Part shown: positions 14,583 to 63,522 of the stretch, piece by piece
Numbering within the stretch: the stretch's first letter is position 1
Layout of the letters: each line of letters opens with the position of its first letter
Source of the DNA: Spirochaetia bacterium
Lineage (GTDB): Bacteria > Spirochaetota > Spirochaetia > DSM-2461
Assembly (NCBI GenBank): GCA_963666985.2
Contig: CAXXIA010000002.1
Span: forward strand, 1,824,001-1,888,000
Length of the DNA stretch: 64,000 nucleotides
Reading direction: 5' to 3'
Position numbers and translations under genes: made by a program
Notes under the pieces: model-generated
The model's database searches: none
What the model was told of the DNA's origin: nothing
Seen by the model: only the letters and a program-made list of their open reading frames with translations

Positions 14583-14799
14583 ACAAAACAGCTGTTGATG
14601 CGCTCCAGCTGATAACGAGGTTATCAGCCTCCGGGCCTTCGGCCAAATTTCGTTTTGGCGATGGCTCTTGCAGATGCGTTTCCGAAAGTGATGTGATACC
14701 ATCAAAGGCGAACAAAGCATTGCAGTAGAAGAGCAAGAGCACATGCCAACCGGCTTTCAGCCGGACACGAAACATTCGCATAACAGCGGAACGTTAAGC
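14583..14799 (+). repeat. attC site 9
   Basis: AAC 14587, GTT 14793. Confidence 0.9.
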
Positions 14800-14817
14800 G
14801 TATTGCCATTTAGTGTT

Positions 14818-16160
14818 TGAGCGACCAGGACATCCTTTACATTTTAGGTTCAGGACATCGTTTACACAAAACAAGCTTAAACGAAGCATTTGAATCCATC
14901 AACTGAAGGGAGAAAGGCATAGGTTTTCAAATCAATTTCTCCCAATCTGAGATTGTCAAACCATACGGTGAAGCTCTCATCCTCATTCTCCCGAAGTCCA
15001 ACTTGGTATCCTGAAAAGACATAACTGACAAAGACTCTATGCCTGTCGATAGTAACGGCTCCCCGATTATTCACCATTCTCACCAGATACCCGGCCGGGT
15101 AGATCACCTGAGGGATTCGAGGAGGGAAAGGCCGATTGGACTTTGTGTAAATACTTCCGGGAGTCTGCATTTTGAGAGCTTCATGCGGACGAACACTGTT
15201 GAATTGATTTCTCCAAACATCAAAGTGTGCCTGATGTTCTGAGAGGTTCCCTTGAATCTGTCCCTGCAATTCGCGTTTGATATCGGCATGCATTCTTTCA
15301 TGCCCTCCGTTTTCACAAGGCCTTCCTGGAGTGATGCGATCAAGTTCAATTCCCAAGGCCAGCCACCAAACACTTAAGCGGGTGAGTCCGAGTAATCCCT
15401 TCATGGAAGCAAAGGGTGGTCCGTTATCGGAGCGGATTACCCGAGGGATTCCATAGAGAGAAAAGAGCTTTTCGAACTCTGTTCTAACTTCTTGTGTGTC
15501 AGCCTTTTGGAGAGCTTTGATGGTGAAGATGTATTTGGAGTATTCATCCCGAACCGTCAGAGGTTCACACTTTTCATTATCGGGAGTGTACCACCATCCT
15601 TTGAAGTCGACCGTCCAGATATCATTAGGGGCTTTGGCCTGCAGATGTGTTTGGATTCGGCTGCCTTTGGTCTGCTGCCGTTTCTTTCGATGATGAACCA
15701 GTCCTGCTTTATCAAGGATGCGTTTGACGGTGGTGAGGCTTGGGGGATTATTATGAGGATGGGTCTTCTGGTAGATCTCGAGAATCTTTTTTGGCCCCCA
15801 GCTGGAGTTGTGCAACGTCTTGATCCGGATAATACCGCATATAACGTCTTCAGGCGTTTGGTTGGGGCTGCTGCGAGGTCTACGGGGTCGTTCCTTCAAC
15901 CCGGCGAGCCCTTCCTGGATAAACCGGTTTTTCCATTTAAGGCCTGTCGGCCGGGAGATCCCGTACTCAGCACAGAGGTCTTTCATACAGACATGGGGAT
16001 CCATGGCCTTGAGGGCGAACTCGAATTTGACGTCCATAATATTGGTCTCCTTCCACGGCATAACCAGCACCTCGATAAGGGAAAGTGCTGATCATTTTAG
16101 TTCTTGTCGTGTAAAGGATGTCCTGGTACTCTCGTGTAAACGATGTCCTGAACCCGTACC
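14818..16160 (-). mobile_element. IS481-family element, isoform A, copy 1
   Basis: Ends TGAGCGACCAGGACATCC.../...GAACCCGTACC; two AGGACATCSTTTACA-like repeats per end; TSD TGTT. Confidence 0.88.
14877..16070 (-). CDS. IS481-family DDE transposase
   Basis: N-terminal HTH; WTVDFKG, IRSDNGPPF and ENGGHERMH motifs. Confidence 0.92.
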   Translation of the reverse strand: MLVMPWKETNIMDVKFEFALKAMDPHVCMKDLCAEYGISRPTGLKWKNRFIQEGLAGLKERPRRPRSSPNQTPEDVICGIIRIKTLHNSSWGPKKILEIYQKTHPHNNPPSLTTVKRILDKAGLVHHRKKRQQTKGSRIQTHLQAKAPNDIWTVDFKGWWYTPDNEKCEPLTVRDEYSKYIFTIKALQKADTQEVRTEFEKLFSLYGIPRVIRSDNGPPFASMKGLLGLTRLSVWWLALGIELDRITPGRPCENGGHERMHADIKRELQGQIQGNLSEHQAHFDVWRNQFNSVRPHEALKMQTPGSIYTKSNRPFPPRIPQVIYPAGYLVRMVNNRGAVTIDRHRVFVSYVFSGYQVGLRENEDESFTVWFDNLRLGEIDLKTYAFLPSVDGFKCFV

Positions 16161-16209
16161 TGTTGAGTGTTTTTACAATTGGCTAATATTTTGAAAGTAC
16201 GAGGAAAAT

Positions 16210-17154
16210 ATGGAAGAAAAAAAGCATCGAGGAACAATCTCTATAAAAAATTTGATGTTATTTTTAGTAGTATTCATTCTAGGACTCGTTACTAATCAAA
16301 TTATATCACAAGTTCTTAGCGGTGAGGTAACTACTTTTACCACTTTAGATCTTATAAATTTTGTTGTAACAATATTGCTTTCAGCGGCATCTATTGTTTT
16401 AGCTGTCACTTCTATTTTGCTGGGAAAAACTGCTGAAGAAGAATTAAATCGAAAGACTACTGAGAGCATTCGTCTTCAAAACGAGGTTTTTATGCGAACG
16501 AATGAAGTTTTAAATAGAATTGAATCTTCCACTGGCGTAACAGAAAAGAGGATAGAAGATATAATTTCAGGTCGAGTTGGAGACATTTCAAGCAGAATTG
16601 CACACATTGCTACAAGTAGGAGTAATAAGTCAAAAAAAGAGATTGAGAATGAAGTTAAACAATCAATTGTCAGTGGTCTGAAAAAGGATAATGAAAAGAC
16701 TGAAGAGGAAAGGGCGATTGAGAAGATTGAGAAGGAAAGAGTAGAGAGATATAAAAATTTTCATCAGTTAATTTTGAGAGCATTTGCAAATCGAGATGAT
16801 ACCTATGTAATAAAAACGTTACACGGAAGTTTTCAATCAGAGAGTGAAGGATTGTTTGATGGTGTGTACAAGGTTGGGGATAAAATTATTGGTGTAAGTG
16901 CAATGCTGATTGAATTAGAAAGACCAGAAACTATATCAGAATACATAATGAAAATTGCTAAAGAAATTATAAACGGGGAAACTAGTCAGGTCTATTTATT
17001 TCTTTACGATGCAAAGGAAGAAGCTTTTACAGAATACTATAAAAAAGAACTAGAAATACTAAAAGGCAATCCCAGCGAAAGAATTCATTTTTATTCTAGT
17101 AATTGCGATCAGGTTGAAAGTCTGATAAGTAAACTTGAAATAGCAAAAGTATAA
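16210..17154 (+). CDS. Hypothetical protein with two N-terminal TM helices and a coiled coil
   Basis: 314-aa ORF; GAGG RBS; fills the cassette. Confidence 0.75.
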   Translation: MEEKKHRGTISIKNLMLFLVVFILGLVTNQIISQVLSGEVTTFTTLDLINFVVTILLSAASIVLAVTSILLGKTAEEELNRKTTESIRLQNEVFMRTNEVLNRIESSTGVTEKRIEDIISGRVGDISSRIAHIATSRSNKSKKEIENEVKQSIVSGLKKDNEKTEEERAIEKIEKERVERYKNFHQLILRAFANRDDTYVIKTLHGSFQSESEGLFDGVYKVGDKIIGVSAMLIELERPETISEYIMKIAKEIINGETSQVYLFLYDAKEEAFTEYYKKELEILKGNPSERIHFYSSNCDQVESLISKLEIAKV

Positions 17155-17165
17155 TGAAGCAATAC

Positions 17166-17374
17166 GCTTAACAGCTGTTGATGCGCTCCGGCCGCTAAAA
17201 GTGTTTAGCGGCCTTCGGGGCTTCGCCCAAATTCGTCTCTGTCATAGATTTTGCGAATGGCTGGCGAGTATGATAGGATGTCTTTCAGTAAACGGTTGCA
17301 ATTGTTCTGAGAGGCAAAATCTTTGCCAGCCGCTTCGCGGACGACGAACTTCGCATAACAGCGGGCCGTTTGGC
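17166..17374 (+). repeat. attC site 10
   Basis: AAC 17170, GTT 17368. Confidence 0.9.
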
Positions 17375-17410
17375 GAAATTTCCAAAAGGCCTTTTTTTAT
17401 CTCTATAACG

Positions 17411-18397
17411 TTAGTCTACAGAGTAAGAAAGAAGGCCACTAGCTAAATCTGCCAGATAGATAAAGTTTCCATCACCCCAAACTCCATAGGCTGAATTGCA
17501 TTGGTCGTCGGAATCAATAAATTTCAGGTTACCCGAAGAATCAGCTTTATAGGAGAGAAGGCCACCGAAGTTATTTGCCAGATAGAGGTAGTCTCCATCA
17601 CCCCAAACTTCCATGGCGTTACCGCCCTGGTCGTCGGAATCGATAAATTCCAAGTTACCCGAAGAATCAACCTTATAGGAGAGAAGGCCACTACGGCTAT
17701 TTGCCAGATAGATGAATTCTCCATCACTCCAAACGCCATAGGCGTAACCGCCTTGATCGTCGGAATCGATAAATTCCAGGTTACCAGAAGAATCAACCTT
17801 ATAGGAGAGAAGGCCACTGCTGTAATTTGCCAGATAGATAAAGTCACCATCACCCCAAACGCCCCAGGCTGAACCGCCTTGGTCGTCAGAATCGATAAAT
17901 TCCAGGTTACCAGAAGAATCCACCATATAAGAGAGGAGACCACTATCGCTATTTGCCAAATAGATGAAGTCACCATCACCCCAAACTCCCACTGCATGAC
18001 CGCCTTGGTCGTCAGAATCGATAAATTCCAAGTTACCTGATGAATCTACATTATAGGAGAGTAGGCCACTTTCACCATCTGCCAGATAGATGTAATCTCC
18101 ATCACCCCAAACTTCAACGGCGGTTCCGCCCTTATCATCGGAATCAATAAATTCTAGATTGCCTGACGAATCTACCTTATAGGAGAGAAGGCCAATTGGG
18201 CCATTTGCAAGATAGATGAAGTCTCCATCACCCCAAACTCCATAGCCAATACCGCCTATGTCGTTGGAATCGATGAAGGTTAGATAACCTGATTTCTCGT
18301 TGTCTACATCGGATGATGGATTGCTACATCCTGCAGCGAAAATAATAAGTACCACAGAAAGAATAACATAAAAGATTTTATGTAAGGGTTGTTTCAT
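17411..18397 (-). CDS. LVIVD-like repeat (beta-propeller) lipoprotein
   Basis: IIFAAGC lipobox; about seven 42-aa repeats of VWGDGDFIYLAN...LLSYxVDSSGNLEFIDSDD. Confidence 0.82.
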   Translation of the reverse strand: MKQPLHKIFYVILSVVLIIFAAGCSNPSSDVDNEKSGYLTFIDSNDIGGIGYGVWGDGDFIYLANGPIGLLSYKVDSSGNLEFIDSDDKGGTAVEVWGDGDYIYLADGESGLLSYNVDSSGNLEFIDSDDQGGHAVGVWGDGDFIYLANSDSGLLSYMVDSSGNLEFIDSDDQGGSAWGVWGDGDFIYLANYSSGLLSYKVDSSGNLEFIDSDDQGGYAYGVWSDGEFIYLANSRSGLLSYKVDSSGNLEFIDSDDQGGNAMEVWGDGDYLYLANNFGGLLSYKADSSGNLKFIDSDDQCNSAYGVWGDGNFIYLADLASGLLSYSVD

Positions 18398-18657
18398 TAC
18401 CCCCTCCATTAACACAGATTAACCCTTAAGGAAATATAAATATATCTAATTATATATGTTGCAATAACGAACATTAACACACCCCTATGAAATAAAACAA
18501 GAGTATTGTCGATAAGGCCTTTATAGGGATAAAAAACGCGTATACGCCGATGGTCTTCCTAAAGAATTATCATCGCTTTTCATCTATATTATATGGAAAT
18601 CAAGAAGCTTTTAGTTTTAGGGCAAAACGATAAGAGGACGTTCAGATCGGAAACTTC

Positions 18658-18867
18658 GCCAAACAGCTGTTGATGCGCTCCGAATACATTTGCATGCAAA
18701 TGTATTCTCCGGGGCTTCGCCCAAATTTGCCTCTGTTACAGATTTTGCGAGAGGCTGCGACCGTGGTAAGATGAGTTGCAGTATGCGGATGAGGTTGTGA
18801 AGAATCGCAAAATCTCCGCCAGTCGCTACGCGAACGGCAAACTTCGCATACCAGCGGCCCGTTTAAT
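18658..18867 (+). repeat. attC site 11
   Basis: AAC 18662, GTT 18861. Confidence 0.9.
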
Positions 18868-18933
18868 GAAAAAGCCAGAAGGCATTTCACCGCCTCGGCA
18901 TCCATGCCTCGGCGAGTAGATTGAATTAGGAGT

Positions 18934-19206
18934 ATGAAAACTATGAATGTAAGAGACATTCTCATTGTCAAAAAAGCAAAGAAAATAGAGAACTTCGATC
19001 CTATTGTCCTTGGAACACAGACGCTCACCAATGTGAGCAAAGAACAAACTGATAAGGATGCTAGTTCCCATAACGGATTTGAGTTAGGTACACAAACTAG
19101 AACATTTACTCAAGAAGAAATGACAGACAGTGATACAGACAGAATACAACTTGGTACTCAGACTGTGACGAAACATATGGCTGAGGGTACAGACGAAGAT
19201 CGATGA
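18934..19206 (+). CDS. Graspetide (ATP-grasp RiPP) precursor with three cores
   Basis: Leader followed by three LGTQTxTxxxxExTDxD repeats; AGGAG RBS; overlaps the ATP-grasp gene. Confidence 0.85.
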   Translation: MKTMNVRDILIVKKAKKIENFDPIVLGTQTLTNVSKEQTDKDASSHNGFELGTQTRTFTQEEMTDSDTDRIQLGTQTVTKHMAEGTDEDR

Positions 19207-20150
19207 TTCTTCTAGTTACAAATACCGAAGATAAAACAGCTGACTACCTAGAGAGAAATACAAAGAATTCCTTCTTACGTTTCAATACTGAGAAATTTCT
19301 GACAGAGTATAAACTCTCGTATTCGAACAGTGGATTCGAACTACAACATGTCTTATCAGGGAAAATTGTCACAAATCAGAATTTAAAAGGAGTGATCTAT
19401 CGTAGACCAACTTATCCTGACGTGTCAGCTGATGACGGATCCACGAAGCTTCAAGAAGAATTGAGGAATGAAGCTCGAATAATATACGAATCAATACTAG
19501 GTAGTATTGATACAAGATGGATCAGTGAACCATATAGCGTGAGGAAAGCAGAAAATAAACTACTACAACTCAAGTATGCAAGAAATGTAGGTCTTTCAAC
19601 ACCAAAAACAATTGTGTCAAATGATAAAAACCAGGTAGAGGAGTTTTTACGAACGGCAAATTCAAGGTTGTGCATTAAGCCTATGCATCTTGGCATATTC
19701 GAGATAAAAGACGAAATCTACATACCATACAATACAATAATTTCTTATGAAGATATTTCTGCAGTTGATAACTATCCAACCTTGATACAAGAATATGTCG
19801 AAAAACAATATGAAGTTAGGGTGGTTATAATCGGAGAAGCCGTTTTTTCTATCAGAATAGATTCTCAAAAGAATGCTGATACGAAATTTGACTGGAGAAC
19901 AAATAACTGTATGGCTGTTGAATACTCAATTACAGAAATACCTTTTGAAATAGAGAATAAATGTAAGCAGTTAATGAGTGAATTTAATGTAAATTTCGCT
20001 TCAATGGATCTTGCCATCAATGAGAACGGAGAATATGTGTTTCTAGACTTGAACCCTAACGGTCAATGGGCTTGGCTAGACGAATTATTGAATTTAAACA
20101 TGACTAACGCCTTCATCGATTTTTTCGACAAAGGAGATAAATATGTTTGA
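19203..20150 (+). CDS. MvdC/MvdD-family ATP-grasp RiPP ligase
   Basis: YRRP, AENKLLQL, IQEYVEKQYEVRV, FDWR and FLDLNPNGQWAWL motifs. Confidence 0.9.
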   Translation: MILLVTNTEDKTADYLERNTKNSFLRFNTEKFLTEYKLSYSNSGFELQHVLSGKIVTNQNLKGVIYRRPTYPDVSADDGSTKLQEELRNEARIIYESILGSIDTRWISEPYSVRKAENKLLQLKYARNVGLSTPKTIVSNDKNQVEEFLRTANSRLCIKPMHLGIFEIKDEIYIPYNTIISYEDISAVDNYPTLIQEYVEKQYEVRVVIIGEAVFSIRIDSQKNADTKFDWRTNNCMAVEYSITEIPFEIENKCKQLMSEFNVNFASMDLAINENGEYVFLDLNPNGQWAWLDELLNLNMTNAFIDFFDKGDKYV

Positions 20151-21613: not shown

Positions 21614-21615
21614 TC

Positions 21616-26235: not shown

Positions 26236-26236
26236 A

Positions 26237-31624: not shown

Positions 31625-31895
31625 GTAAAACAGCTGTTGATGCGCTGCGGACGCTAACGAGGTTTGCGTCCTTGGGCCGAGCGATGGGAAACTATGAGTT
31701 TTATGATTTCTGTAAAAGGGAAAAATCAAATTGGTTCGGCTCGGCCAAATTTCGCTTTGGCGATGGCTCTTGCAGATGCGTTCCTGGAAGTTGTGTGATA
31801 GTCTGAAGAGAGAACAGGCTTTCTGCTAAAAGCAAGAGCGCATGCCAACCGGCTACGCCGGTCGCGAAACTTCGCATACCAGCGGAACGTTAATT
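31625..31895 (+). repeat. attC site 16 (long variant)
   Basis: AAC 31629, GTT 31889. Confidence 0.9.
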
Positions 31896-31913
31896 GAAAT
31901 ACGGAATGGAGGT

Positions 31914-33253
31914 TGAGCGACCAGGACATCCTTTACATTTTAGGTTCAGGACATCGTTTACACTAAACAAGTTTAAACGAAGCATTTGAACCCATCAACA
32001 GAGGGTATAAATGCAAATGTTTTCCGATCAATTTCTCCTAATCTTAAATTGTCAAACCAGACGGTAAAAGTCTCATCTTCATTTTCTCGAAGACCAACTT
32101 GGTATCCAACAAAGACATAACTGACGAAAATCCTGTGTCGGTCTATGGTCACCGCCCCACGATTATTTATCATTCTCACCTCATATCCGGATGGATAAAT
32201 CACCTGTGGAATCTGAGAAGGGAAGGGCCGTTTGGACTTTGTGTAAACACTTCCGGGAGTCTGCATTTTAAGAGCTTCATGAGGTCGAACACTGTTGAAC
32301 TGATTTCTCCAGACATCAAAATGCGCCTGATGTTCAGAGAGGTTACCCTGAATCTGTCCCTGTAATTCCCGTTTGATATCGGCATGCATTCTCTCATGCC
32401 CCCCGTTCTCACAAGGTCGTCCCGGAGTGATGCGATCAAGTTCGATTCCCAAGGCCAACCACCAAACACTTAAGCGTGTGAGCCCCAGCAGTCCCTTCAT
32501 GGAGGCAAAGGGAGGTCCGTTGTCGGACCTAATGACTCTGGGCATTCCATAGATGGAAAAGAGCTTCTCAAACTCGGTTCTAACTTCTTGTGTGTCAGCC
32601 TTTTGGAGTGCTTTGATGGTAAAGATGTATTTGGAAAACTCATCCCGAACGGTCAAAGGTTCACATCGTTCTCCCTCGGGAGTATACCACCAGCCTTTGA
32701 AATCCACGGTCCAGATGTCATTCGGCTGCTTGGCTTGAAGACGGCTCTGGATTCGCTGAGATTTATTCTGCCGGCGTTTCTTTCGGTGCACTACCAGACC
32801 TGCTTTATCCAGGATGCGTTTCACGGTGGTCAGACTTGGACTCTCCTGGTGGGGATGTGTCTTCTGGTAGATATCGAGGATTTTCTTTGGCCCCCATTTG
32901 GTGTGTCGTGATTTGATTCGGACGATGTCGCAGATGACATTCTCCGGTGTCTGGTGAGGGCAGATACGAGGTTTCCTGGTTCTTTCATTCAGGCCGGCGA
33001 GCCCTTCCTGAATAAACCGGTTTTTCCATTTAAGGCCTGTCGGCCGGGAGATCCCGTACTCAGCACAGAGGTCTTTCATACAGACATGGGGATCCATGGC
33101 CTTGAGGGCGAACTCGAATTTGACGTCCATAATATTGGTCTCCTTCCACGGCATAATCAGCACCTCGATAAGGGAAAGTACTGATCATTTTAGTCCTTGT
33201 CGTGTAAAGGATGTCCTGGTACTCTCGTGTAAACGATGTCGTGGACCCGTACC
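31914..33253 (-). mobile_element. IS481-family element, isoform B, copy 2
   Basis: Nearly the same ends as isoform A; TSD AGGT. Confidence 0.88.
31973..33163 (-). CDS. IS481-family DDE transposase, isoform B
   Basis: 396 aa; close paralogue of 14877-16070. Confidence 0.92.
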   Translation of the reverse strand: MLIMPWKETNIMDVKFEFALKAMDPHVCMKDLCAEYGISRPTGLKWKNRFIQEGLAGLNERTRKPRICPHQTPENVICDIVRIKSRHTKWGPKKILDIYQKTHPHQESPSLTTVKRILDKAGLVVHRKKRRQNKSQRIQSRLQAKQPNDIWTVDFKGWWYTPEGERCEPLTVRDEFSKYIFTIKALQKADTQEVRTEFEKLFSIYGMPRVIRSDNGPPFASMKGLLGLTRLSVWWLALGIELDRITPGRPCENGGHERMHADIKRELQGQIQGNLSEHQAHFDVWRNQFNSVRPHEALKMQTPGSVYTKSKRPFPSQIPQVIYPSGYEVRMINNRGAVTIDRHRIFVSYVFVGYQVGLRENEDETFTVWFDNLRLGEIDRKTFAFIPSVDGFKCFV

Positions 33254-33263
33254 AGGTTCAATA

Positions 33264-41001: not shown

Positions 41002-41272
41002 AAGAAACAGCTGTTGATGCGCGGCGGCCGCTAATGTGATTAGCGGCCTTGGGCCGAGCGATGGGTATTGGTTGAGAGTTAATGATTTCTGTAAAAGGGA
41101 AAAATCAAATTGAATCGGCTCGGCCAAATTTCGCTTTGGCTGCTTGTGTAGAGATGTTTTGGTTCGGAGTCTGTGGTAAGGTTAAAAAGCGAGCGGAGGT
41201 TCTGGGAATTGTGTTGGGCAGCCAACCGGCTTTGCCGGACGCGAAACTTCGCATAACAGCGGAACGTTTGAT
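41002..41272 (+). repeat. attC site 21 (long variant)
   Basis: AAC 41006, GTT 41266. Confidence 0.9.
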
Positions 41273-41291: not shown

Positions 41292-42634
41292 TGAGCGACC
41301 AGGACATCCTTTACATTTTAGGTTCAGGACATCGTTTACACAAAACAAGCTTAAACGAAGCATTTGAATCCATCAACTGAAGGGAGAAAGGCATAGGTTT
41401 TCAAATCAATTTCTCCCAATCTGAGATTGTCAAACCATACGGTGAAGCTCTCATCCTCATTCTCCCGAAGTCCAACTTGGTATCCTGAAAAGACATAACT
41501 GACAAAGACTCTATGCCTGTCGATAGTAACGGCTCCCCGATTATTCACCATTCTCACCAGATACCCGGCCGGGTAGATCACCTGAGGGATTCGAGGAGGG
41601 AAAGGCCGATTGGACTTTGTGTAAATACTTCCGGGAGTCTGCATTTTGAGAGCTTCATGCGGACGAACACTGTTGAATTGATTTCTCCAAACATCAAAGT
41701 GTGCCTGATGTTCTGAGAGGTTCCCTTGAATCTGTCCCTGCAATTCGCGTTTGATATCGGCATGCATTCTTTCATGCCCTCCGTTTTCACAAGGCCTTCC
41801 TGGAGTGATGCGATCAAGTTCAATTCCCAAGGCCAGCCACCAAACACTTAAGCGGGTGAGTCCGAGTAATCCCTTCATGGAAGCAAAGGGTGGTCCGTTA
41901 TCGGAGCGGATTACCCGAGGGATTCCATAGAGAGAAAAGAGCTTTTCGAACTCTGTTCTAACTTCTTGTGTGTCAGCCTTTTGGAGAGCTTTGATGGTGA
42001 AGATGTATTTGGAGTATTCATCCCGAACCGTCAGAGGTTCACACTTTTCATTATCGGGAGTGTACCACCATCCTTTGAAGTCGACCGTCCAGATATCATT
42101 AGGGGCTTTGGCCTGCAGATGTGTTTGGATTCGGCTGCCTTTGGTCTGCTGCCGTTTCTTTCGATGATGAACCAGTCCTGCTTTATCAAGGATGCGTTTG
42201 ACGGTGGTGAGGCTTGGGGGATTATTATGAGGATGGGTCTTCTGGTAGATCTCGAGAATCTTTTTTGGCCCCCAGCTGGAGTTGTGCAACGTCTTGATCC
42301 GGATAATACCGCATATAACGTCTTCAGGCGTTTGGTTGGGGCTGCTGCGAGGTCTACGGGGTCGTTCCTTCAACCCGGCGAGCCCTTCCTGGATAAACCG
42401 GTTTTTCCATTTAAGGCCTGTCGGCCGGGAGATCCCGTACTCAGCACAGAGGTCTTTCATACAGACATGGGGATCCATGGCCTTGAGGGCGAACTCGAAT
42501 TTGACGTCCATAATATTGGTCTCCTTCCACGGCATAACCAGCACCTCGATAAGGGAAAGTGCTGATCATTTTAGTTCTTGTCGTGTAAAGGATGTCCTGG
42601 TACTCTCGTGTAAACGATGTCCTGAACCCGTACC
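41292..42634 (-). mobile_element. IS481-family element, isoform A, copy 3 (non-matching flanks)
   Basis: Same ends and transposase as copy 1; flanks AGGAT and GAATT do not match. Confidence 0.88.
41351..42544 (-). CDS. IS481-family DDE transposase
   Basis: Translation identical to 14877-16070. Confidence 0.92.
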   Translation of the reverse strand: MLVMPWKETNIMDVKFEFALKAMDPHVCMKDLCAEYGISRPTGLKWKNRFIQEGLAGLKERPRRPRSSPNQTPEDVICGIIRIKTLHNSSWGPKKILEIYQKTHPHNNPPSLTTVKRILDKAGLVHHRKKRQQTKGSRIQTHLQAKAPNDIWTVDFKGWWYTPDNEKCEPLTVRDEYSKYIFTIKALQKADTQEVRTEFEKLFSLYGIPRVIRSDNGPPFASMKGLLGLTRLSVWWLALGIELDRITPGRPCENGGHERMHADIKRELQGQIQGNLSEHQAHFDVWRNQFNSVRPHEALKMQTPGSIYTKSNRPFPPRIPQVIYPAGYLVRMVNNRGAVTIDRHRVFVSYVFSGYQVGLRENEDESFTVWFDNLRLGEIDLKTYAFLPSVDGFKCFV

Positions 42635-53745: not shown

Positions 53746-53954
53746 CGATAACAGCTGTTGATGCGCTCCGGCTGATAACGGGGTTATCAGCCTTCGGGGC
53801 TTCGCCCAAATTTGCCTCTGTCATAGATTTTGCGTAAGTCTGACGTTGTGGTAAGATGAGTTGCAGTATGCGGTTGATATTGTGAAGAAACGCAAAATCT
53901 CCGCCAGTCGCCTTCGGCGAACGGCAAACTTCGCATAACAGCGGAACGTTAAAG
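53746..53954 (+). repeat. attC site 27
   Basis: AAC 53750, GTT 53948. Confidence 0.9.
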
Positions 53955-54285
53955 GAAATTCGGACGACGACAATGAGCGACCAGGACATCCTTTACATTT
54001 TAGGTTCAGGACATCGTTTACACTAAACAAGTTTAAACGAAGCATTTGAACCCATCAACAGAGGGTATAAATGCAAATGTTTTCCGATCAATTTCTCCTA
54101 ATCTTAAATTGTCAAACCAGACGGTAAAAGTCTCATCTTCATTTTCTCGAAGACCAACTTGGTATCCAACAAAGACATAACTGACGAAAATCCTGTGTCG
54201 GTCTATGGTCACCGCCCCACGATTATTTATCATTCTCACCTCATATCCGGATGGATATGGAATTCCCAGACTTCTATAGACACCT

Positions 54286-55104
54286 CTAGCTTGCAATAGA
54301 ACCCTTTTCAAATTCAACCGGAGAGATCCCGCCAAGATGCTTGTGGCGACGCTTCCGGTTGTAAAATGCTTCAATATAATCGAACACATCAGACCGTGCT
54401 TCATCCCTTGTTCGATATGTCTTCCGGCGAATCCGTTCCTTCTTCAAACTACCAAAGAATGATTCCATGGCTGCATTGTCCCAGCAGTTTCCACGACGGC
54501 TCATACTTCTCTTCAGTCCGTTGTCACGACAGAATCTAATCCAGTCACCGCTGTCAAATTGGCCGCCCTGATCGGAATGGATAAGGACTTTGTTTTTCGG
54601 GCGTCTCTTCCAAACAGCTGTCAGTAAGGCCTGGATAACCAGATCACGATGAAGCGTGTTCTGCATGGACCAGCCGATGATTCTCCTGGAATAAAGATCC
54701 ATGACAACTGCGAGATACAGCCAACCTTCATGAGTTCGAATATAGGTAATATCCGTTGTCCACGCAGTATCGGGTTCTTCTACATTAAAGTCCTGCTGGA
54801 GATGGTTCGGGGCAGCCTGGGACGGTTTTCCATACTTGAATCGACGCATCTTGAAGCCGACCATCGCCCTGATACCATGCTCTCGCATGATTCTGGCTAC
54901 TCGATGGACGCTGCAGGATTCTCCGTCTTCCATCAAATCCTCATGGATTCGTGGACTTCCGTAGACCTGATCGCTTTCTTCGTAGAAGTGGCGAATCTTC
55001 TTCAACAACCGAATGTCTTCAATCTTTCTCTCTGATTGAGGTTTTCTCAACCATGCATAGAATCCGCTTCGATTGACATCGAGAACCCGGCACATAGTCT
55101 TCAC
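54286..55104 (-). CDS. IS3 transposase OrfB
   Basis: WTTDITY, HSDQG and CWDNAAMESFF motifs. Confidence 0.92.
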   Translation of the reverse strand: MKTMCRVLDVNRSGFYAWLRKPQSERKIEDIRLLKKIRHFYEESDQVYGSPRIHEDLMEDGESCSVHRVARIMREHGIRAMVGFKMRRFKYGKPSQAAPNHLQQDFNVEEPDTAWTTDITYIRTHEGWLYLAVVMDLYSRRIIGWSMQNTLHRDLVIQALLTAVWKRRPKNKVLIHSDQGGQFDSGDWIRFCRDNGLKRSMSRRGNCWDNAAMESFFGSLKKERIRRKTYRTRDEARSDVFDYIEAFYNRKRRHKHLGGISPVEFEKGSIAS

Positions 55105-55142
55105 TCTGAATTCAGCCCTGTAGTTTTTGATGAAGGCATATC

Positions 55143-55430
55143 TTACTCGGACTGACTCGCGAAGTATGCCGCGGCTTTTTTTAAGATATCTCGCTCTTCC
55201 TGCACCCGCCGCAGCTCTGCTTTCAGCCTGGCATTCTCGACTTCAAGCTCCTTATTTGCTTTTGCCGATTCTGGTGCTTTTGGATTTCGAGAATCGGCCT
55301 TCAGCCACTTATAGAGGCTATGGGTTGAGACTCCTATACGCTCAGAGACTTCCTTGATGGAGTAGCCCCGCTCAACAACCTGGCCGACTGCTTCTGCCTT
55401 GAATTCGTCCGAATATCGCGGACTTCCCAT
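55143..55430 (-). CDS. IS3 transposase OrfA
   Basis: RYSDEFKAEAV...ERDILKKAAAYF. Confidence 0.9.
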   Translation of the reverse strand: MGSPRYSDEFKAEAVGQVVERGYSIKEVSERIGVSTHSLYKWLKADSRNPKAPESAKANKELEVENARLKAELRRVQEERDILKKAAAYFASQSE

Positions 55431-56548
55431 GATGTACACTCCTTCCTCATTTTGAGTTTAGCAGTGTCTATCAAAAGCTGGGAATTCCAATAAATCACCT
55501 GTGGAATCTGAGAAGGGAAGGGCCGTTTGGACTTTGTGTAAACACTTCCGGGAGTCTGCATTTTAAGAGCTTCATGAGGTCGAACACTGTTGAACTGATT
55601 TCTCCAGACATCAAAATGCGCCTGATGTTCAGAGAGGTTACCCTGAATCTGTCCCTGTAATTCCCGTTTGATATCGGCATGCATTCTCTCATGCCCCCCG
55701 TTCTCACAAGGTCGTCCCGGAGTGATGCGATCAAGTTCGATTCCCAAGGCCAACCACCAAACACTTAAGCGTGTGAGCCCCAGCAGTCCCTTCATGGAGG
55801 CAAAGGGAGGTCCGTTGTCGGACCTAATGACTCTGGGCATTCCATAGATGGAAAAGAGCTTCTCAAACTCGGTTCTAACTTCTTGTGTGTCAGCCTTTTG
55901 GAGTGCTTTGATGGTAAAGATGTATTTGGAAAACTCATCCCGAACGGTCAAAGGTTCACATCGTTCTCCCTCGGGAGTATACCACCAGCCTTTGAAATCC
56001 ACGGTCCAGATGTCATTCGGCTGCTTGGCTTGAAGACGGCTCTGGATTCGCTGAGATTTATTCTGCCGGCGTTTCTTTCGGTGCACTACCAGACCTGCTT
56101 TATCCAGGATGCGTTTCACGGTGGTCAGACTTGGACTCTCCTGGTGGGGATGTGTCTTCTGGTAGATATCGAGGATTTTCTTTGGCCCCCATTTGGTGTG
56201 TCGTGATTTGATTCGGACGATGTCGCAGATGACATTCTCCGGTGTCTGGTGAGGGCAGATACGAGGTTTCCTGGTTCTTTCATTCAGGCCGGCGAGCCCT
56301 TCCTGAATAAACCGGTTTTTCCATTTAAGGCCTGTCGGCCGGGAGATCCCGTACTCAGCACAGAGGTCTTTCATACAGACATGGGGATCCATGGCCTTGA
56401 GGGCGAACTCGAATTTGACGTCCATAATATTGGTCTCCTTCCACGGCATAATCAGCACCTCGATAAGGGAAAGTACTGATCATTTTAGTCCTTGTCGTGT
56501 AAAGGATGTCCTGGTACTCTCGTGTAAACGATGTCGTGGACCCGTACC

Positions 56549-57281
56549 GACAAGAAAGGGGCTTCTTTTTTTGAGGTGTTTTTCTATGGCAACTCTTTCC
56601 CTTTTATTTGGCTAAGTACGTGAACCTAAACCCCTTCAAGTGTGAATTTCTTTTTTGAGGCCTTCCACCTCTGTAAAAGATAAAGGTCAATTTAATCCGG
56701 CTTTCTCCTCACCCCAACACCATAACAAACATCTTTATATGAGAATCCAGAACGCATCGGAACATTTCTCGCTTCATTCTTAGATACTTTTAGTGCGAAG
56801 GCGGTCAGTTCCAGAGAAGTTGTCAGAGAGACTTTTATGGTTATTAAAAAGAATGGGAGTTGCTCATAGTTGAATCCTTCGCAGTTAATAAATCTCGCAT
56901 CGAAAAAGGATACGCTTATGAATTATTGGGTTCAAGAAGATTGGGTGGTAGCCTAAGAGTATGAATTAATGAATTTACTGTTCATGGAGATTGTTATGGC
57001 CGTGGTTCGCTATTAATGGTTTAGGCAGAACGCTTTAAGAGCATGCCTGTGTATATGGAGAAGATGAACAAAAGGTTTTATAGAATCCGTTCTGATAGAA
57101 GAGTGGTCTTGGAAGGCTAATCGCATCAGAAGATGTCCTTGTAAAGTGAAGAGGCGGGGAAAGTGTAAATACTGGTCAGTATGCTGAGAATAAAAAATGT
57201 TCCGATGAAAGAATCAAAACGGAAGAGGGGGTGAGGAGCAAGAGAGGTTGGTAAGGGCTCGTCGTCCGAACTTCCTTTAAC
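56549..57281 (+). other. Long ORF-less cassette, type L, divergent copy 5 (5' end at 53948-53973)
   Basis: Colinear but diverged; keeps the terminal and internal complementary motifs; lacks about 80 bp near the 3' end. Confidence 0.72.
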
Positions 57282-57506: not shown

Positions 57507-57576
57507 GATAAAATCTGAAATATCTTTTTGAGTCATCTATGCATCAATAAATTGCGATTAATTTACCATAAATAAA

Positions 57577-58424
57577 TTATTCAACTTTGTAGACATGAAG
57601 TCCATTCATCTGATTAGCCAGATAGATGAAGTTTCCATCACCCCATACGTCATAGGCAATTCCTCCTTGGTCATCTGAATCAATAGAGGTCAGATTTCCC
57701 GAAGAGTCAACCGAATAACTGTAAATACCATTTCCACCACGAGCAACATATAAGAAATTTCCATCACCACATACACTATAGGCAGTTGTTCCCAAAGCCT
57801 CGGAATCGATATGGGTTAAGTTTCCTGAAGAGTCAACTGAATAACTGTAAATACCACTTCCACCACGAGCAACATATATAAAGTTTCCATCACCCCATAC
57901 AGCATAGGCATCCTGACCGGGATCATCGCAATCGATATGGGTTAGATTTCCTGAAGAATCAACCGAATAGCTGTGAAGTCCTCCTTCTCCATTAGCTAAA
58001 TAGATAAAATCATCATCACCCCACACACCACGTGCAATTTCTCCCGGATCATCGGAATCGATGAGGGTTAGATTTCCTGAAGAATCAACAGAAAAACTGT
58101 AAATCCCACTTGTTCCATTAGCTAAATATATGAAGTCTTCATCACCCCATACATCAAATGCAAATCCTCCATGGTCATCAGAATCGATCTTGTTTAGAAT
58201 CCCTGAAGAGTCAACCGAATAGCTAAGGAGTCCTCTATATCCATTAGCTAGATATATAAAGTTTCCATCACCCCATACACCCAAGGCCAATTCTCCCGGA
58301 TCATCGGAATCGATGTGGGATAGAATCCCGGAAGAATCAACCGAATAGGTTTTAAAACTTCCAGAAAAGTTTGCAATATAAACGAAGTCACCATCACTCC
58401 AAACACCATTTGCTTGACTACCTG
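57577..58424 (-). pseudogene. 5'-truncated LVIVD-like repeat protein, paralogue of 17411-18397
   Basis: Same 42-aa repeats; N-terminus replaced by the IS3 end. Confidence 0.8.
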
Positions 58425-58454
58425 TGAACCACACCGGGATTCCCGGAGGCTGTT

Positions 58455-59366
58455 TTAGTTGAGTCCGGCAGCTACTGCCGAACATTCTTCCTGTTCATAA
58501 TACATCGATTCAAACTTCGCCGGGGGGATATCTCCAAGCGGCTCCATGATTCGGCGGTTGTTGTACCAGTCCACCCAGTCCAGGGTTTCCAATTCAACCT
58601 GTTCTATTCTCTGCCATGAGCTCCTCCGGTGGATGACTTCGGCTTTGTAGAGACCGTTGATAGTCTCAGCCATTGCGTTATCGTACGAGTCTCCTTTGCT
58701 CCCAACCGAAGGCTCGATACCGGCCTCTGTCAATCGATCCGAATATCGAAACGAAAGATACTGCCTTCCACGATCACTGTGATGAATCAGACCGTCGACT
58801 ACTTCCCTGGCCCAAAGCGCCTGATTGAGCGCATCAAGAGTAAAGTCGGTTTTCATCGACCGGCTAGCTCGCCAACCGACGATCATCCGGGAGAAGACAT
58901 CAATGATGAAGGCAACATAGACGAAGCCCTGCCAGGTGGAAACGTAGGTGAAATCCGCAACCCAAAGCCGATTCGGCTTGGAAGCTGTGAAATCTCTGTT
59001 AACCAGATCCTCGGGTCTTTCATCTTTCGGTGACGGGAAGGTGGTCTTGGTTCCCTTGCCCCGAATGACGCCTCTGAGACCCATAGAACGCATAAGACGT
59101 TCGACGGTACACCTGGCTACATGGAGATGCTTCTCATTTCTAAGAACCTTCCAGACTTTCCTGGCGCCGTAGACTCTACGGTTCTCATCCCATATCTCCT
59201 GAATCTCATTTTTAAGAAACCGGTCTCGACGTGTTCGATCAGGTTCGAGTTCAGGATCAGCTTCTCTTGCTTTTTGTAGATGATAGGTCGACGGAGCAAT
59301 CGGCAGTGATTTGCAGATAGGCTCGACTCCATATTCTTCCCGGTTCTCATTGATAAAACCGACCAT
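58455..59366 (-). CDS. IS3 transposase OrfB
   Basis: WVADFTYV, HHSDRG and SYDNAMAETING motifs. Confidence 0.92.
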   Translation of the reverse strand: MVGFINENREEYGVEPICKSLPIAPSTYHLQKAREADPELEPDRTRRDRFLKNEIQEIWDENRRVYGARKVWKVLRNEKHLHVARCTVERLMRSMGLRGVIRGKGTKTTFPSPKDERPEDLVNRDFTASKPNRLWVADFTYVSTWQGFVYVAFIIDVFSRMIVGWRASRSMKTDFTLDALNQALWAREVVDGLIHHSDRGRQYLSFRYSDRLTEAGIEPSVGSKGDSYDNAMAETINGLYKAEVIHRRSSWQRIEQVELETLDWVDWYNNRRIMEPLGDIPPAKFESMYYEQEECSAVAAGLN

Positions 59367-59686
59367 CAGTTCTTTCGGCGGTCGAGCTCCGCCTGGGCAA
59401 AATACGCTGAGGCCTTTCGAAGAATTTCGTTGGCAGTACGAAGTTCTCGATTCTCCTTTTCCAGCTCTTTAAGACGCTTACGCTCTTCACTGGTTAGACC
59501 ATCCCGCTGCCCTTCATCGATTTCTGCCTGCCGAACCCATTTCCGGAGTGTTTCGGGTGTACAGCCGATCTTAGCGGATATTGAACAAATCGCCGACCAC
59601 TGAGATTCGCTGTCCTTCTGCTTCTCAAACACCATCCGGACAGATTGTTCCCGGACTTCCTTGGGGTACCTTGTTTGCTTTCCCAT
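59366..59686 (-). CDS. IS3 transposase OrfA
   Basis: RYPKEVRE...ANEILRKASAYFAQAELDR. Confidence 0.92.
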   Translation of the reverse strand: MGKQTRYPKEVREQSVRMVFEKQKDSESQWSAICSISAKIGCTPETLRKWVRQAEIDEGQRDGLTSEERKRLKELEKENRELRTANEILRKASAYFAQAELDRRKN

Positions 59687-59736
59687 GACACAATCCTCTC
59701 AAGTAATTGTGCCTCCGGTAAAGCCGGGGTGGTTCA

Positions 59737-60401
59737 CTACTCATTCAAATGATGCGTTAGTACCTCTACCCGACAAAGCTATCTGGGCTGCAACAAATAA
59801 GAATCTTTATCAAGGCCGACTTGATGTTCGATCACTTAGAGCAATTACTGGAACTATAGAATCAGAACTTGCTGTCTTTACAGAAGACCTTTTTGCAAAA
59901 GAATGGATAGAAAGTATCCTTCGACACAACGCTATTGAAAATTTCGACAGAATTGAGGTGCATGCTCTTTCAGGTGATGGTACTGCAGTTAAACTTCACA
60001 AGAATCACAACGCAGATCCAGCTGTGAAAGTACCGTCAATATGTTTCATTGATGGAGATTCCAAGCAGGAAGAATCTGAGGACCTAATGATCTATCGACT
60101 GCCAGGAGAATGCCCTGAGTCTTATATCTGTAACAAAGTTAATGATAAAATCGATGAGTTTATGGCAGAACTTGCTATTTCGTTGCATCTTGCTTATGAA
60201 AAACAAGAAAGAGTTAAAGAGGTTATTGGCTCAATTCTAACAACGAACTACGATCCTCATTTATTATTTTCACAGATTGGTAAGAAAATCGCATTTGTAT
60301 CTGAAACCATAGTACGAAACGCATTCCTTTCGATTTGGAATAAATCCTATAGCAGTGAATCTGGAGAGATCTATAGAACAATTAGTTCACATCTAACTTA
60401 A
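59737..60401 (+). pseudogene. 5'-truncated ABC-ATPase/TOPRIM (OLD-like) protein
   Basis: Begins at the TTHS H-loop; VFTED and FIDGD TOPRIM-like motifs; no native start. Confidence 0.65.
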
Positions 60402-60447
60402 TGATCGCTATATTTATAAGAAAATCATGTGCTGAAATGTTCTGTTC

Positions 60448-60653
60448 GTTTAACAGCTGTTGATGCGCTCCGGCGGTAACGAGGTTACCGCCTCCGGGGC
60501 TCTGCCCAAATTTGCCTCTGTCATAGATTTTGCGGAAGGCTTTCGCTGTGATAAAATGAGTTGCGGTTAGCGGTTGAAGTTGTGAAGAAGCGCAAAATCT
60601 CCGCCAGTCGCTTGAGCGAACGGCAAACTTCGCATAACAGCGGAACGTTAGAC
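60448..60653 (+). repeat. attC site 29
   Basis: AAC 60452, GTT 60647. Confidence 0.9.
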
Positions 60654-60817
60654 GGCGTTCTCGTTTAAATCCATATATAGAAAAAAATAGTTATAGATTA
60701 AGGTTAATTCAATATAGGCAAAGTATGTACATGATCCGGTTTATGCGTGCAAGAAAACAAAATAAATGCACATAATAGTGTTGATAAGTTCCTAAAACCT
60801 CCTAATATGTACATAAG

Positions 60818-61903
60818 ATGACGAGCGCATACAACGATTTACCACTACTACCACCTACAGCAGATTTGCAGACGAAAGAACTCCTCAAAGCAGCAATAAG
60901 CGCTAACGTAGAGCTTGCCCGGTTAAAGGGATACTGTACTCTTCTTCCCAACGATTCAATTCTACTAAGCTCTCTCGTCTTAAAAGAGGCGAGGGCTAGT
61001 TCTAATATTGAAAATATCATCACAACGCACGATGCACTTTATCAGGCAGCGGCCAGTAAGAGTCCGGTTACAGATCCTCAGACTAAAGAGGTTTTGAATT
61101 ACCGAGCAGCGCTGTATCGAGGTAATGCTTTCATTCGAGAAAAAGGTATTTTAACGGTTAATACAATCCTTGGGATTCAAGAAGAACTTGAAAAAAACTC
61201 TGCCGGCATCAGACGTCTTCCAGGAACGAGTCTGGTAAATGATTCCACTGGAGAGGTTATCTATACGCCACCGGACAATCCTGATTCGATACAAGCACTT
61301 CTTAAGAATTTAGAGGTTTATATCAATACCGATGATGATATGGATGCACTGATAAAAATGGCGGTCATTCATTATCAGTTTGAATCAATTCATCCTTTTT
61401 ATGATGGTAACGGGAGAACCGGAAGAATCCTCAACGTTCTTTTTCTAGTGCTTAAAGGGTTGCTGGATAGTCCTATTCTTTATTTGAGCTCTTATATCAA
61501 TAGAAACCGATCAGAATATTATAAACGGCTTCAATCGGTTCGAACAAATGAAGGATGGGAAAGTTGGATTGGATTTATGCTCAAAGCGGTTGAGGTGACA
61601 TCGAAAGAAACGTTGCTGCTTATCACTTCCATCACAGCACTTATGGAAAGTACAACGGAAAAGGCGAAGTTGGGTTTACCATCAACCAGTTATTCAAAAG
61701 AGTTAATCGAGTTGATATTTGAAAATCCGTATACGAAAATCGAGCATGTTGTAAATCGTGGTTTGGCGGAACGCCGAACAGCGAGTAAGTATCTCAAGCA
61801 GTTGGAGGGAATAGGGATTCTCCAATCATACAAGGCGGGTAAAGAGATTCTGTTTATCAATAAAGGCCTTTATGAAGTATTAAAGAGAGAGAACGCCGTC
61901 TAA
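60818..61903 (+). CDS. fic: Fic-family AMPylase (class II, SoFic-like)
   Basis: HPFYDGNGRTGR active site; N-terminal SSNIEN inhibitory motif; C-terminal HTH. Confidence 0.93.
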   Translation: MTSAYNDLPLLPPTADLQTKELLKAAISANVELARLKGYCTLLPNDSILLSSLVLKEARASSNIENIITTHDALYQAAASKSPVTDPQTKEVLNYRAALYRGNAFIREKGILTVNTILGIQEELEKNSAGIRRLPGTSLVNDSTGEVIYTPPDNPDSIQALLKNLEVYINTDDDMDALIKMAVIHYQFESIHPFYDGNGRTGRILNVLFLVLKGLLDSPILYLSSYINRNRSEYYKRLQSVRTNEGWESWIGFMLKAVEVTSKETLLLITSITALMESTTEKAKLGLPSTSYSKELIELIFENPYTKIEHVVNRGLAERRTASKYLKQLEGIGILQSYKAGKEILFINKGLYEVLKRENAV

Positions 61904-62110
61904 CAGCTGTTGATGCGCTCCGAATACATTTGCAAGCAAATGTATTCTCCGGGGCTCCGCCCAAATTTCGCTTTGTCATGGCTCTTGCAGATGCGTTTCT
62001 GTAAGTTGTGTGATAATCTGAAGAGCGAACGGGCTTTCTGTTAAAGGCAAGAGCACATGCCAACCGGCTGCGCCGGCCGCGAAACTTCGCATACCAGCGG
62101 AACGTTAAAT
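61898..62110 (+). repeat. attC site 30
   Basis: AAC 61902 overlaps the fic stop; GTT 62104. Confidence 0.9.
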
Positions 62111-62128
62111 GAAAACACAAAATAAATT

Positions 62129-63471
62129 TGAGCGACCAGGACATCCTTTACATTTTAGGTTCAGGACATCGTTTACACAAAACAAGCTTAAACGAAGCAT
62201 TTGAATCCATCAACTGAAGGGAGAAAGGCATAGGTTTTCAAATCAATTTCTCCCAATCTGAGATTGTCAAACCATACGGTGAAGCTCTCATCCTCATTCT
62301 CCCGAAGTCCAACTTGGTATCCTGAAAAGACATAACTGACAAAGACTCTATGCCTGTCGATAGTAACGGCTCCCCGATTATTCACCATTCTCACCAGATA
62401 CCCGGCCGGGTAGATCACCTGAGGGATTCGAGGAGGGAAAGGCCGATTGGACTTTGTGTAAATACTTCCGGGAGTCTGCATTTTGAGAGCTTCATGCGGA
62501 CGAACACTGTTGAATTGATTTCTCCAAACATCAAAGTGTGCCTGATGTTCTGAGAGGTTCCCTTGAATCTGTCCCTGCAATTCGCGTTTGATATCGGCAT
62601 GCATTCTTTCATGCCCTCCGTTTTCACAAGGCCTTCCTGGAGTGATGCGATCAAGTTCAATTCCCAAGGCCAGCCACCAAACACTTAAGCGGGTGAGTCC
62701 GAGTAATCCCTTCATGGAAGCAAAGGGTGGTCCGTTATCGGAGCGGATTACCCGAGGGATTCCATAGAGAGAAAAGAGCTTTTCGAACTCTGTTCTAACT
62801 TCTTGTGTGTCAGCCTTTTGGAGAGCTTTGATGGTGAAGATGTATTTGGAGTATTCATCCCGAACCGTCAGAGGTTCACACTTTTCATTATCGGGAGTGT
62901 ACCACCATCCTTTGAAGTCGACCGTCCAGATATCATTAGGGGCTTTGGCCTGCAGATGTGTTTGGATTCGGCTGCCTTTGGTCTGCTGCCGTTTCTTTCG
63001 ATGATGAACCAGTCCTGCTTTATCAAGGATGCGTTTGACGGTGGTGAGGCTTGGGGGATTATTATGAGGATGGGTCTTCTGGTAGATCTCGAGAATCTTT
63101 TTTGGCCCCCAGCTGGAGTTGTGCAACGTCTTGATCCGGATAATACCGCATATAACGTCTTCAGGCGTTTGGTTGGGGCTGCTGCGAGGTCTACGGGGTC
63201 GTTCCTTCAACCCGGCGAGCCCTTCCTGGATAAACCGGTTTTTCCATTTAAGGCCTGTCGGCCGGGAGATCCCGTACTCAGCACAGAGGTCTTTCATACA
63301 GACATGGGGATCCATGGCCTTGAGGGCGAACTCGAATTTGACGTCCATAATATTGGTCTCCTTCCACGGCATAACCAGCACCTCGATAAGGGAAAGTGCT
63401 GATCATTTTAGTTCTTGTCGTGTAAAGGATGTCCTGGTACTCTCGTGTAAACGATGTCCTGAACCCGTACC
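62129..63471 (-). mobile_element. IS481-family element, isoform A, copy 5
   Basis: Same ends as copy 1; TSD AATT. Confidence 0.88.
62188..63381 (-). CDS. IS481-family DDE transposase
   Basis: Translation identical to 14877-16070. Confidence 0.92.
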   Translation of the reverse strand: MLVMPWKETNIMDVKFEFALKAMDPHVCMKDLCAEYGISRPTGLKWKNRFIQEGLAGLKERPRRPRSSPNQTPEDVICGIIRIKTLHNSSWGPKKILEIYQKTHPHNNPPSLTTVKRILDKAGLVHHRKKRQQTKGSRIQTHLQAKAPNDIWTVDFKGWWYTPDNEKCEPLTVRDEYSKYIFTIKALQKADTQEVRTEFEKLFSLYGIPRVIRSDNGPPFASMKGLLGLTRLSVWWLALGIELDRITPGRPCENGGHERMHADIKRELQGQIQGNLSEHQAHFDVWRNQFNSVRPHEALKMQTPGSIYTKSNRPFPPRIPQVIYPAGYLVRMVNNRGAVTIDRHRVFVSYVFSGYQVGLRENEDESFTVWFDNLRLGEIDLKTYAFLPSVDGFKCFV

Positions 63472-63522
63472 AATTTATTAAGTTATAATTATATAAATCC
63501 TGTAGAAATAGAGGAGTAAAAC

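Follow-up and report, generated by a model that had tools for sequence, protein, structure and literature searches.

An IS481-like insertion sequence located at a fixed distance beside the attC-like sites of a spirochaete cassette array

How does a mobile element that carries a single gene come to lie, copy after copy, at almost the same distance from a recombination site that it leaves intact? The question is raised by a 64,000-nucleotide stretch of a Spirochaetia genome (C2:1824001-1888000 of the source genome, G000; this whole stretch is called the window here), in which copies of an insertion sequence (IS) with an IS481-like transposase lie just beyond repeats that resemble the attC sites of integrons. 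The original prediction, made from the letters of the window alone, had a single-gene DDE element inserting at a distance measured from some feature of attC and sparing the site, and this is supported by ten of the ten copies found in the surrounding array and by independent relatives in other genomes. Its description of five window copies, in two isoforms and on one strand, is likewise confirmed by coordinates and by BLAST.

The window, with a G+C content of 39% (51% genome-wide), is the middle part of a 155-kb array of direct repeats (C2:1777100-1933600). An nhmmer profile of the repeat 3' end gave 86 matches between C2:1779354 and 1933531, all on the + strand, and none in the rest of the genome; the array thus holds at least 86 attC-like sites, this count being a lower bound, and 30 of them are inside the window. 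All 86 matches close with GTT, at which sequence conservation ends. BLAST located 13 copies of the element genome-wide, 10 in the array and 3 outside. The array copies (nine full or interrupted and one 130-bp remnant) are all on the + strand and begin at +25 (six), +26 (three) or +27 (the remnant) after the G of the preceding GTT.

Within the window, copy 1 (14818-16160, + strand; isoform A, 1343 bp) lies between duplications of TGTT (14814-14817 and 16161-16164) and follows an attC 3' block at 14728-14796 (+ strand; nhmmer match C2:1838728-1838796), in which the G of GTT is at 14793. Copy 2 (31914-33253, + strand; isoform B, 1340 bp), duplicating AGGT at 31910-31913 and 33254-33257, follows the block at 31824-31892 (+ strand, G at 31889), and copy 3 (41292-42634, + strand; isoform A) follows that at 41221-41269 (+ strand, G at 41266) but has no duplication, its right flank coming from another cassette. 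Copy 4 (53974-56548, + strand; isoform B; GACAA at 53969-53973 and 56549-56553) and copy 5 (62129-63471, + strand; isoform A; AATT at 62125-62128 and 63472-63475) are preceded by the blocks at 53883-53951 (G at 53948) and 62039-62107 (G at 62104), both on the + strand. The starts, predicted at 25-26 nt after the G, lie at 25, 25, 26, 26 and 25 nt for copies 1 to 5, and all coordinates given in the prediction proved right. A duplication beginning at precisely +21 was also predicted: this holds for all four window duplications but not genome-wide, where the first duplicated base is at +21 or +22. In the array as a whole seven duplications can be read (GTCT, AAAC, AAG, TGTT, AGGT, GACAA and AATT), five of which begin at +21 and two at +22.

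The two array copies without duplications are window copy 3, where the cassette start no longer fits the arm downstream, and a copy at C2:1933553-1934892, where the right flank continues a different cassette family from +22. Recombination between IS copies is the best explanation for both, and the latter records one further insertion at the same offset. With flanks from different cassettes at two copies, the element has also been a source of rearrangements or deletions in the array. The spacer of 21-25 nt that separates GTT from the element is different in each copy and fits the R'' arm of its own cassette, and an empty paralogue of one target (1911589 compared with 1819818) reveals a clean 3-bp duplication; the copies therefore represent independent transpositions. 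Given at least 86 sites over 155 kb, an element inserted at random would fall in a 3-nt slot beside one of them with a probability of ~8e-4 per insertion (calculated by hand), against ten of ten observed. Chance placement is ruled out, and the targeting is statistically overwhelming.

What the element avoids becomes clear from the layout of the cassettes. A 5' core, xxxxAAC-AGCTGTTGATGCG, is found 180-280 nt upstream of GTT in 83 of the 86 repeats, so that the attC-like sites are 180-280 nt long, much above the usual 57-141 nt, and the L'' box GTTGATGCG is one base longer than its partner L' box CGCATAAC. The 12-29 nt that immediately follow the G (mode 18) can pair, in 79 of 82 cassettes, with the sequence flanking the 5' core of the cassette's own attC, which is the signature of cassettes that are cut and joined between G and TT. 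The inverse core organization of integrons (AAC ... GTT in one orientation, downstream of an integrase) and their cassette logic, in which each cassette start is complementary to the 5' core of the attC of that cassette, are thus both found in this array. The arm is readable in eight occupied cassettes, where it measures 14-16 nt in seven and 23 nt in one; in seven of the eight the element was inserted 1-11 nt past the arm, within the leader of the next cassette, and both attC sites bounding the cassette therefore remain whole. That insertion might simply occur where the extended arm ends was considered and rejected, as arms vary from 14 to 24 nt whereas the insertion is fixed relative to GTT.

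Sites of one sequence variant appear to be occupied most often. The sequence GGAACGTT occurs 16 times in the window, always on the + strand, where 1.5 occurrences are expected, and it is found at 16 of the 30 attC-like sites, as originally counted. Array-wide, occupied sites number 7 of 30 for the GGAAC variant, 1 of 6 for AGAAC and 1 of 34 for GGGCC; outside the window GGAAC is present at two of four occupied sites. Among 66 positions tested only position -2 stands out (8 of 9 occupied sites compared with 28 of 77 empty ones; Fisher p = 0.0035, uncorrected), so that a preference for the GGAAC/AAC variant is at most suggestive.

The attC-like sites also contain internal covarying hairpins, and their R arms are lengthened to 14-24 nt. 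By eye, the extended arm shows a recurrent mismatch at position 11, where an A of the cassette start is opposite a C of the 5' flank (e.g., window 10404-10425); on the bottom strand only, this mismatch would be a G-T pair, which fits bottom-strand folding. In a crude array-wide count that includes IS genes and short open reading frames (ORFs), the longest ORF of a cassette is on the + strand in 42 cases and on the - strand in 43, a far larger share of reverse-oriented ORFs than in classical integrons. Tandem 126-bp repeats at window positions 17424-18353 and 57590-58393 sit within two - strand ORFs (17411-18415 and 57577-58485), which represent cassette-borne repeat proteins.

The element itself is compact. 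Its ends were predicted to read TGA...ACC, with two repeats each, and they do: the full form is TGAGCG...CCGTACC, and each end holds two repeats of 16-18 nt. The attC-proximal end (14818-14867 in copy 1) consists of the tip TGAGCGAC followed by two direct repeats, CAGGACATCCTTTACA and, after 8 nt, TCAGGACATCGTTTACAC; the distal end (16109-16160) contains both repeats inverted and in swapped order, followed by the tip ACCCGTACC, so that the two ends are unequal. IS481 family members have terminal inverted repeats with TGT...ACA-type tips and make short duplications; the 3-5 bp duplications seen here fit that pattern, and the tips read TGAGCG... and ...CCGTACC and are unequal. Copies 1, 3 and 5 are mutually 100% identical, isoforms A (copies 1, 3 and 5) and B (copies 2 and 4) share ~85% of their DNA and 89% of their protein sequence, and the transposases of eight copies are reported to be 100% identical over residues 2-397; judged from such sequence features, the IS481-like element appears to be active. 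Copy 4 is interrupted at ~54258-55489 by an IS3-like insert (54258-55489, - strand) with a 272-residue ORF at 54286-55104 that has rve, rve_2 and HTH_21 domains, and an insert of ~2.2 kb divides a further array copy (C2:1810887-1814431).

The sole ORF of the element encodes a transposase of 396-397 residues without a programmed frameshift; it is at 14877-16070 in copy 1 (397 residues), 31973-33163 in copy 2 and 62188-63381 in copy 5, in each case on the - strand. The copy 1 protein comprises two helix-turn-helix (HTH) domains, an rve DDE core and a C-terminal beta domain, and the domain models matched are rve, rve_3, HTH_32 and LZ_Tnp_IS481 (28.3 bits, cut-off 22.2). The best NCBIfam model is that of IS481 (NF033577), with a score of 203.1 bits, below the cut-off of 224 but far above that of other IS families (IS3, 97 bits); the score with ISNCY_2, a model which we take to cover IS1202, is 33.8 bits (cut-off 250). 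An AlphaFold model built with 53 sequences (mean predicted local distance difference test score, pLDDT, of 89.7) has two helical N-terminal domains, an RNase H core and an all-beta C-terminal domain (residues 328-388), and Foldseek places TnsB of ShCAST at the top of its ranking, with IS21 IstA, foamy-virus integrase and MuA also high. To judge by this model, the fold would be the general architecture of the superfamily, and no dedicated targeting domain stands out in it. A promoter and terminator scan over copy 1 gave three promoter-like sites (1.5 expected), none of them at the element ends.

Relatives of the transposase show that the rule is not a peculiarity of one array. Matches at E <= 1e-30 were found in 6 of 40 related genomes, at 34-52% identity except for one 79% fragment, and the closest matches in a profile scan of genome contigs belong to metagenome-assembled genomes (MAGs) of Spirochaetota. 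In one of these, MFD03726.bin.1.50, the transposase is 55% identical and all five copies start 20-22 nt after the G of an attC-like site in which GTT directly follows AAACGTCGTATAGCCGCACC, two of the five with 4-bp duplications. Two further Spirochaetota contigs (L038 and L040) repeat the attC-flank pattern at +21, and a metagenome scan, with flanks read by eye, added 16 more contigs, including L120. When 220 ends whose flank is 55 nt or longer are taken together, GTT is most frequent at 32-33 nt from an anchor in the first end repeat (14 ends at each of these two offsets and a few at most others); in the curated set the distance from G to anchor is 31-34 nt with a mode of 32 (18 loci computed, the rest by hand), and in the source genome it is 38-39 nt. 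Relatives on plasmids do not exceed 42% identity, and those at ~40% carry IS481-family annotations.

In a FastTree tree of 115 transposases, from which rows with partial ORFs or N were left out and in which the attC-flank labels are flanks read by eye, all 21 attC-flank transposases fall in one clade of 27 rows (support is 88 with the window included and 99 when restricted to the inner 25 rows). Five of the other six rows have flanks of at most 15 nt and one has a truncated end, too little for a reading of the target, and no attC-type flank was seen among the tree transposases outside this clade. In 19 of the 21 rows the start of the transposase gene is attC-proximal, whereas the two window isoforms and L130 have it at the far end. 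Whichever the direction of the gene, the TGA- or TGT-type tip is always attC-proximal and the GGT(A/C)C-type tip always distal; orientation thus goes with the unequal tips and does not depend on which way the transposase gene runs. The swapped gene direction would result from an inversion of the segment enclosed by the ~50-bp inverted ends.

Other arrangements were seen among more remote relatives. Two genomes of the same family (G022 and G016) have low-GC arrays with a different attC type of ~110 nt, and in 2 of 4 and 2 of 2 copies of the IS481-like elements there (L029-L032, 36-38% identity) the GGTA tip is 13-14 nt away from a terminal AAC/GTT triplet; these elements fall in a distant clade of the tree and may represent an independent case of attC-flank homing. 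In a genome of the same genus (G012; L010, L017, L021, L024 and L027), four of the five copies of a 47%-identical element have a common left flank of at least 80 nt, so that either the element is longer than delimited or it is located in a repeat. Outside the attC clade, relatives from Verrucomicrobiota, Opitutales, Acidobacteriota and other groups (41-53% identity) have one end followed by tandem units of 6-8 nt that vary from contig to contig, for example CCCTGAA, TCACTAC or AAATCCA (L041-L046, L084, L085, L127, L143, L161, L166, L176, L181, L189 and others); such tandem-array flanks may be another target habit of the family.

The copies outside the array offer a view of the target apart from cassettes. 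They lie at C1:1274631, C2:730735 and C2:3078803, with duplications of ATTA, GCAT and GGGC, which brings the tally to ten distinct duplications at ten copies. No attC was found near them with nhmmer, and no tRNA gene lies within 1.5 kb. When their 80-nt flanks were scanned with an 18-nt matrix of the attC 3' end, with 63 possible offsets, the best match was at d = 25, 25 and 26, in register with the array, and one of the three has the exact 9-mer TAACAGCGG in that register; many copies at places without an attC-like motif would have spoken against targeting, but these three are not at motif-free sites. With 100,000 positions drawn at random from the genome as background, matrices of 11-26 nt give a combined p of 2e-6 to 4e-4, and one of 33 nt gives 0.008. 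Since the 33-nt matrix is weak where shorter ones are strong, the off-array signal is short. These copies point to a sequence cue that would work without a full attC.

What, then, reads the site? We favor, with a probability of about 0.55 and from sequence comparison, direct binding by the transposase of a duplex motif made up of L' box, spacer and GTT, which sets strand transfer 17-25 bp away. The transposase, probably through its N-terminal HTH domains, would bind ~14-17 bp of duplex (L' box, spacer and GTT; approximately ATAMCAGCGGRMCGT), and the bound protein would fix the site of strand transfer about two and a half helical turns downstream. Such a mode would resemble that of Tn7 TnsD at attTn7 but without a helper protein, and the element, a single ORF, has no TnsC- or TnsD-like gene. 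The insertion point would serve as a safe haven at which both attC sites of the cassette stay intact, and the element could also ride in a mobile cassette. Several observations weigh against this reading. The 3' sequence of attC varies between hosts while the spacing holds, which a bound recombinase or a DNA structure would explain equally well. The preference for the AAC variant fails correction for multiple tests. The off-array evidence amounts to three sites with window sizes picked after looking, and the first matrix of 33 nt gave p = 0.007, 0.27 and 0.23, leaving two of the three unremarkable. Finally, a resemblance of the target to the element's own end repeats (CAG-N5-CGTT) was considered, but at ~9 of 13 positions in the source genome and ~4 of 12 in the MAG element (by eye) it is within chance and was dropped.

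Recruitment of the transposase by the tyrosine recombinase of the array, bound at the R' (and L') box, with insertion beside its footprint, would account for the persistence of the rule in hosts with differing attC sequences. The geometry allows it, in that the conserved R' box reaches to ~+10 and the duplications begin 7-11 nt past its end, and the array integrase is Xer-like; an interaction with Xer has been proposed for the dif-site hunters of the IS1202 family in the accessible portions of papers from both groups that describe them (PMC10132070; 10.1101/2022.12.17.520857). Yet the off-array targets, which show no evident attC fold, fit the L'-spacer part better than the R' box, and we regard recruitment as unlikely. 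A cue of structure and not of sequence, such as the base of a folded attC hairpin or cruciform, or attC made single-stranded at a replication fork, is suggested by the long imperfect palindromes with extended arms, by insertion just past the arm in seven of the eight readable cases, and by the bias of all copies to one strand, as expected of a strand-specific structure. In the array, however, the arm adjoining a given attC belongs to the cassette after it and is not a pairing partner of that attC, the insertion keeps its distance from GTT although arm length varies, the off-array sites have no such palindrome, and DDE enzymes of the RNase H transposase fold act on duplex targets; a structural cue is accordingly quite improbable. 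That no targeting exists at all, the copies having spread with attC by shuffling, gene conversion or duplication, or random insertions having survived only in leaders, might be argued from the high similarity and recombination of attC repeats and cassette families and from the two copies without duplications. Such an origin is contradicted by the distinct spacers with their matching arms, the ten different duplications, a single-nucleotide spacing and one orientation beyond what selection gives, the off-array copies with the motif in register and the unrelated hosts that obey the same rule, and we consider it very improbable.

Direct binding by the transposase can also be set in a broader picture, which we offer as doubtful when taken whole: a clade of one-protein DDE transposases with a built-in reader and ruler for tyrosine-recombinase sites, which would bind the attC 3' end directly, insert 17-25 bp away, encode polarity in tips of 6-9 nt (so that the gene can be flipped with targeting unchanged), and spread inside the cassettes of an integron-like system with very long attC and an integrase without the IntI domain.

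That integrase, a tyrosine recombinase of 277 residues, is encoded directly upstream of the array on the opposite strand (~C2:1777.1-1778.0 kb). Its closest solved structure is IntI4 (2a3v), to which it aligns in two pieces, with ~22 residues in place of IntI4 residues 181-245; the extra domain specific to IntI is therefore absent. It scores 220 bits with TIGR02249 (cut-off 265) and 224.6 bits with NF040815 (XerA/integron integrase; cut-off 220), and TIGR02249 found no other integrase candidate in the source genome. About 20 close homologues, 59-97% identical, are equally short, and a search of four relatives gave a match in one. The missing IntI insertion, the score below the TIGR02249 cut-off and the unusual sites are the reason why the terms integron-like system and attC-like sites are used here. 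The array calls into question how strictly cassette systems need the IntI extra domain, and an integron finder that requires that domain, or that limits the length of attC, might overlook it.

The elements also matter to the biology of integrons: they serve as markers of cassette boundaries, bring about rearrangements (flanks have been exchanged at two copies) and may travel with cassettes. By inserting beside attC and not inside it, they add a third way in which cassette arrays are exploited by mobile elements. They also provide a second example, unrelated to the first, of a DDE element that homes to a tyrosine-recombinase site with a single protein. With one protein, defined ends, a short motif and a fixed offset the system is a simple one, and it has many natural variants (+21 and +25 spacing, swapped gene), so that the reading of a distant cue by a lone transposase is directly testable. 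A site-targeting transposase of this kind is of interest as a compact tool for site-directed insertion.

Among known systems, Tn7 with its TnsABC+D proteins reads the sequence of attTn7, inserts in one orientation at a set distance downstream and spares the recognized gene. The present element shares this read-and-measure insertion and a similar transposase fold, as the top rank of ShCAST TnsB indicates, but it has one ORF where Tn7 uses four proteins. Like the IS481 family it has one unbroken DDE ORF with LZ_Tnp_IS481 and rve domains and makes short duplications; unlike ordinary members it falls below the NCBIfam cut-off, has tips that appear atypical and is strict in its choice of target. 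No description of a link between IS481 and attC was found in the literature searched, ISfinder and subscription-only papers lying outside its scope, nor was any description of attC-flank homing of this kind found in the literature on IS and attC targeting, spirochaete integrons and chromosomal integrons with IS. The accessible text of a paper on the Treponema integron notes "a few transposases" within one array, and that of the IntegronFinder paper counts IS inside integrons without an analysis of their positions.

The precedents named in the original prediction, IS1111-attC elements and group IIC-attC introns, are similar in that both are specialized on integron attC and insert in one orientation; Tetu & Holmes 2008 and Post & Hall 2009 are cited in PMC3971601. 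Both, however, insert inside attC and not beside it; according to the portions of the sources at hand, IS1111-attC uses an RNA-guided DEDD enzyme (PMC11187229) and the introns move by retrohoming (PMC3001079), whereas the present element has an rve DDE enzyme and inserts outside attC, so that neither mark of the IS1111-attC group is found. The closest known case was left uncited there: the ISAjo2/ISAba32 group of the IS1202 family, whose members are hunters of dif and pdif sites (Harmer, Pong & Hall 2023, PMC10132070; Siguier et al., 10.1101/2022.12.17.520857). As described in the accessible parts of these two papers, members of that group are likewise single-gene DDE elements, with extra transposase-binding sites near each end, inserted always the same way round and at a constant, short distance from the tyrosine-recombinase site, which remains intact, with short duplications, and their duplication-less copies are likewise attributed to recombination between IS copies. 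The same parts give their transposases as TnsB-related proteins of 441-457 residues and their ends as TGT/ACA, located 5 bp from the XerC arm, whereas the protein described here has 397 residues and is IS481-like, the tips are TGA/ACC, and insertion is 17-25 nt past the crossover of an attC-like site and not of dif. Orientation in the IS1202/ISAjo2 group is that of the transposase-proximal end, while here it is tied to the tip. The element thus works like the IS1202/ISAjo2 family but is not a member of it, and it differs from known site-hunting IS in its transposase family, its attC-flank target, its longer offset and its tip-encoded polarity.

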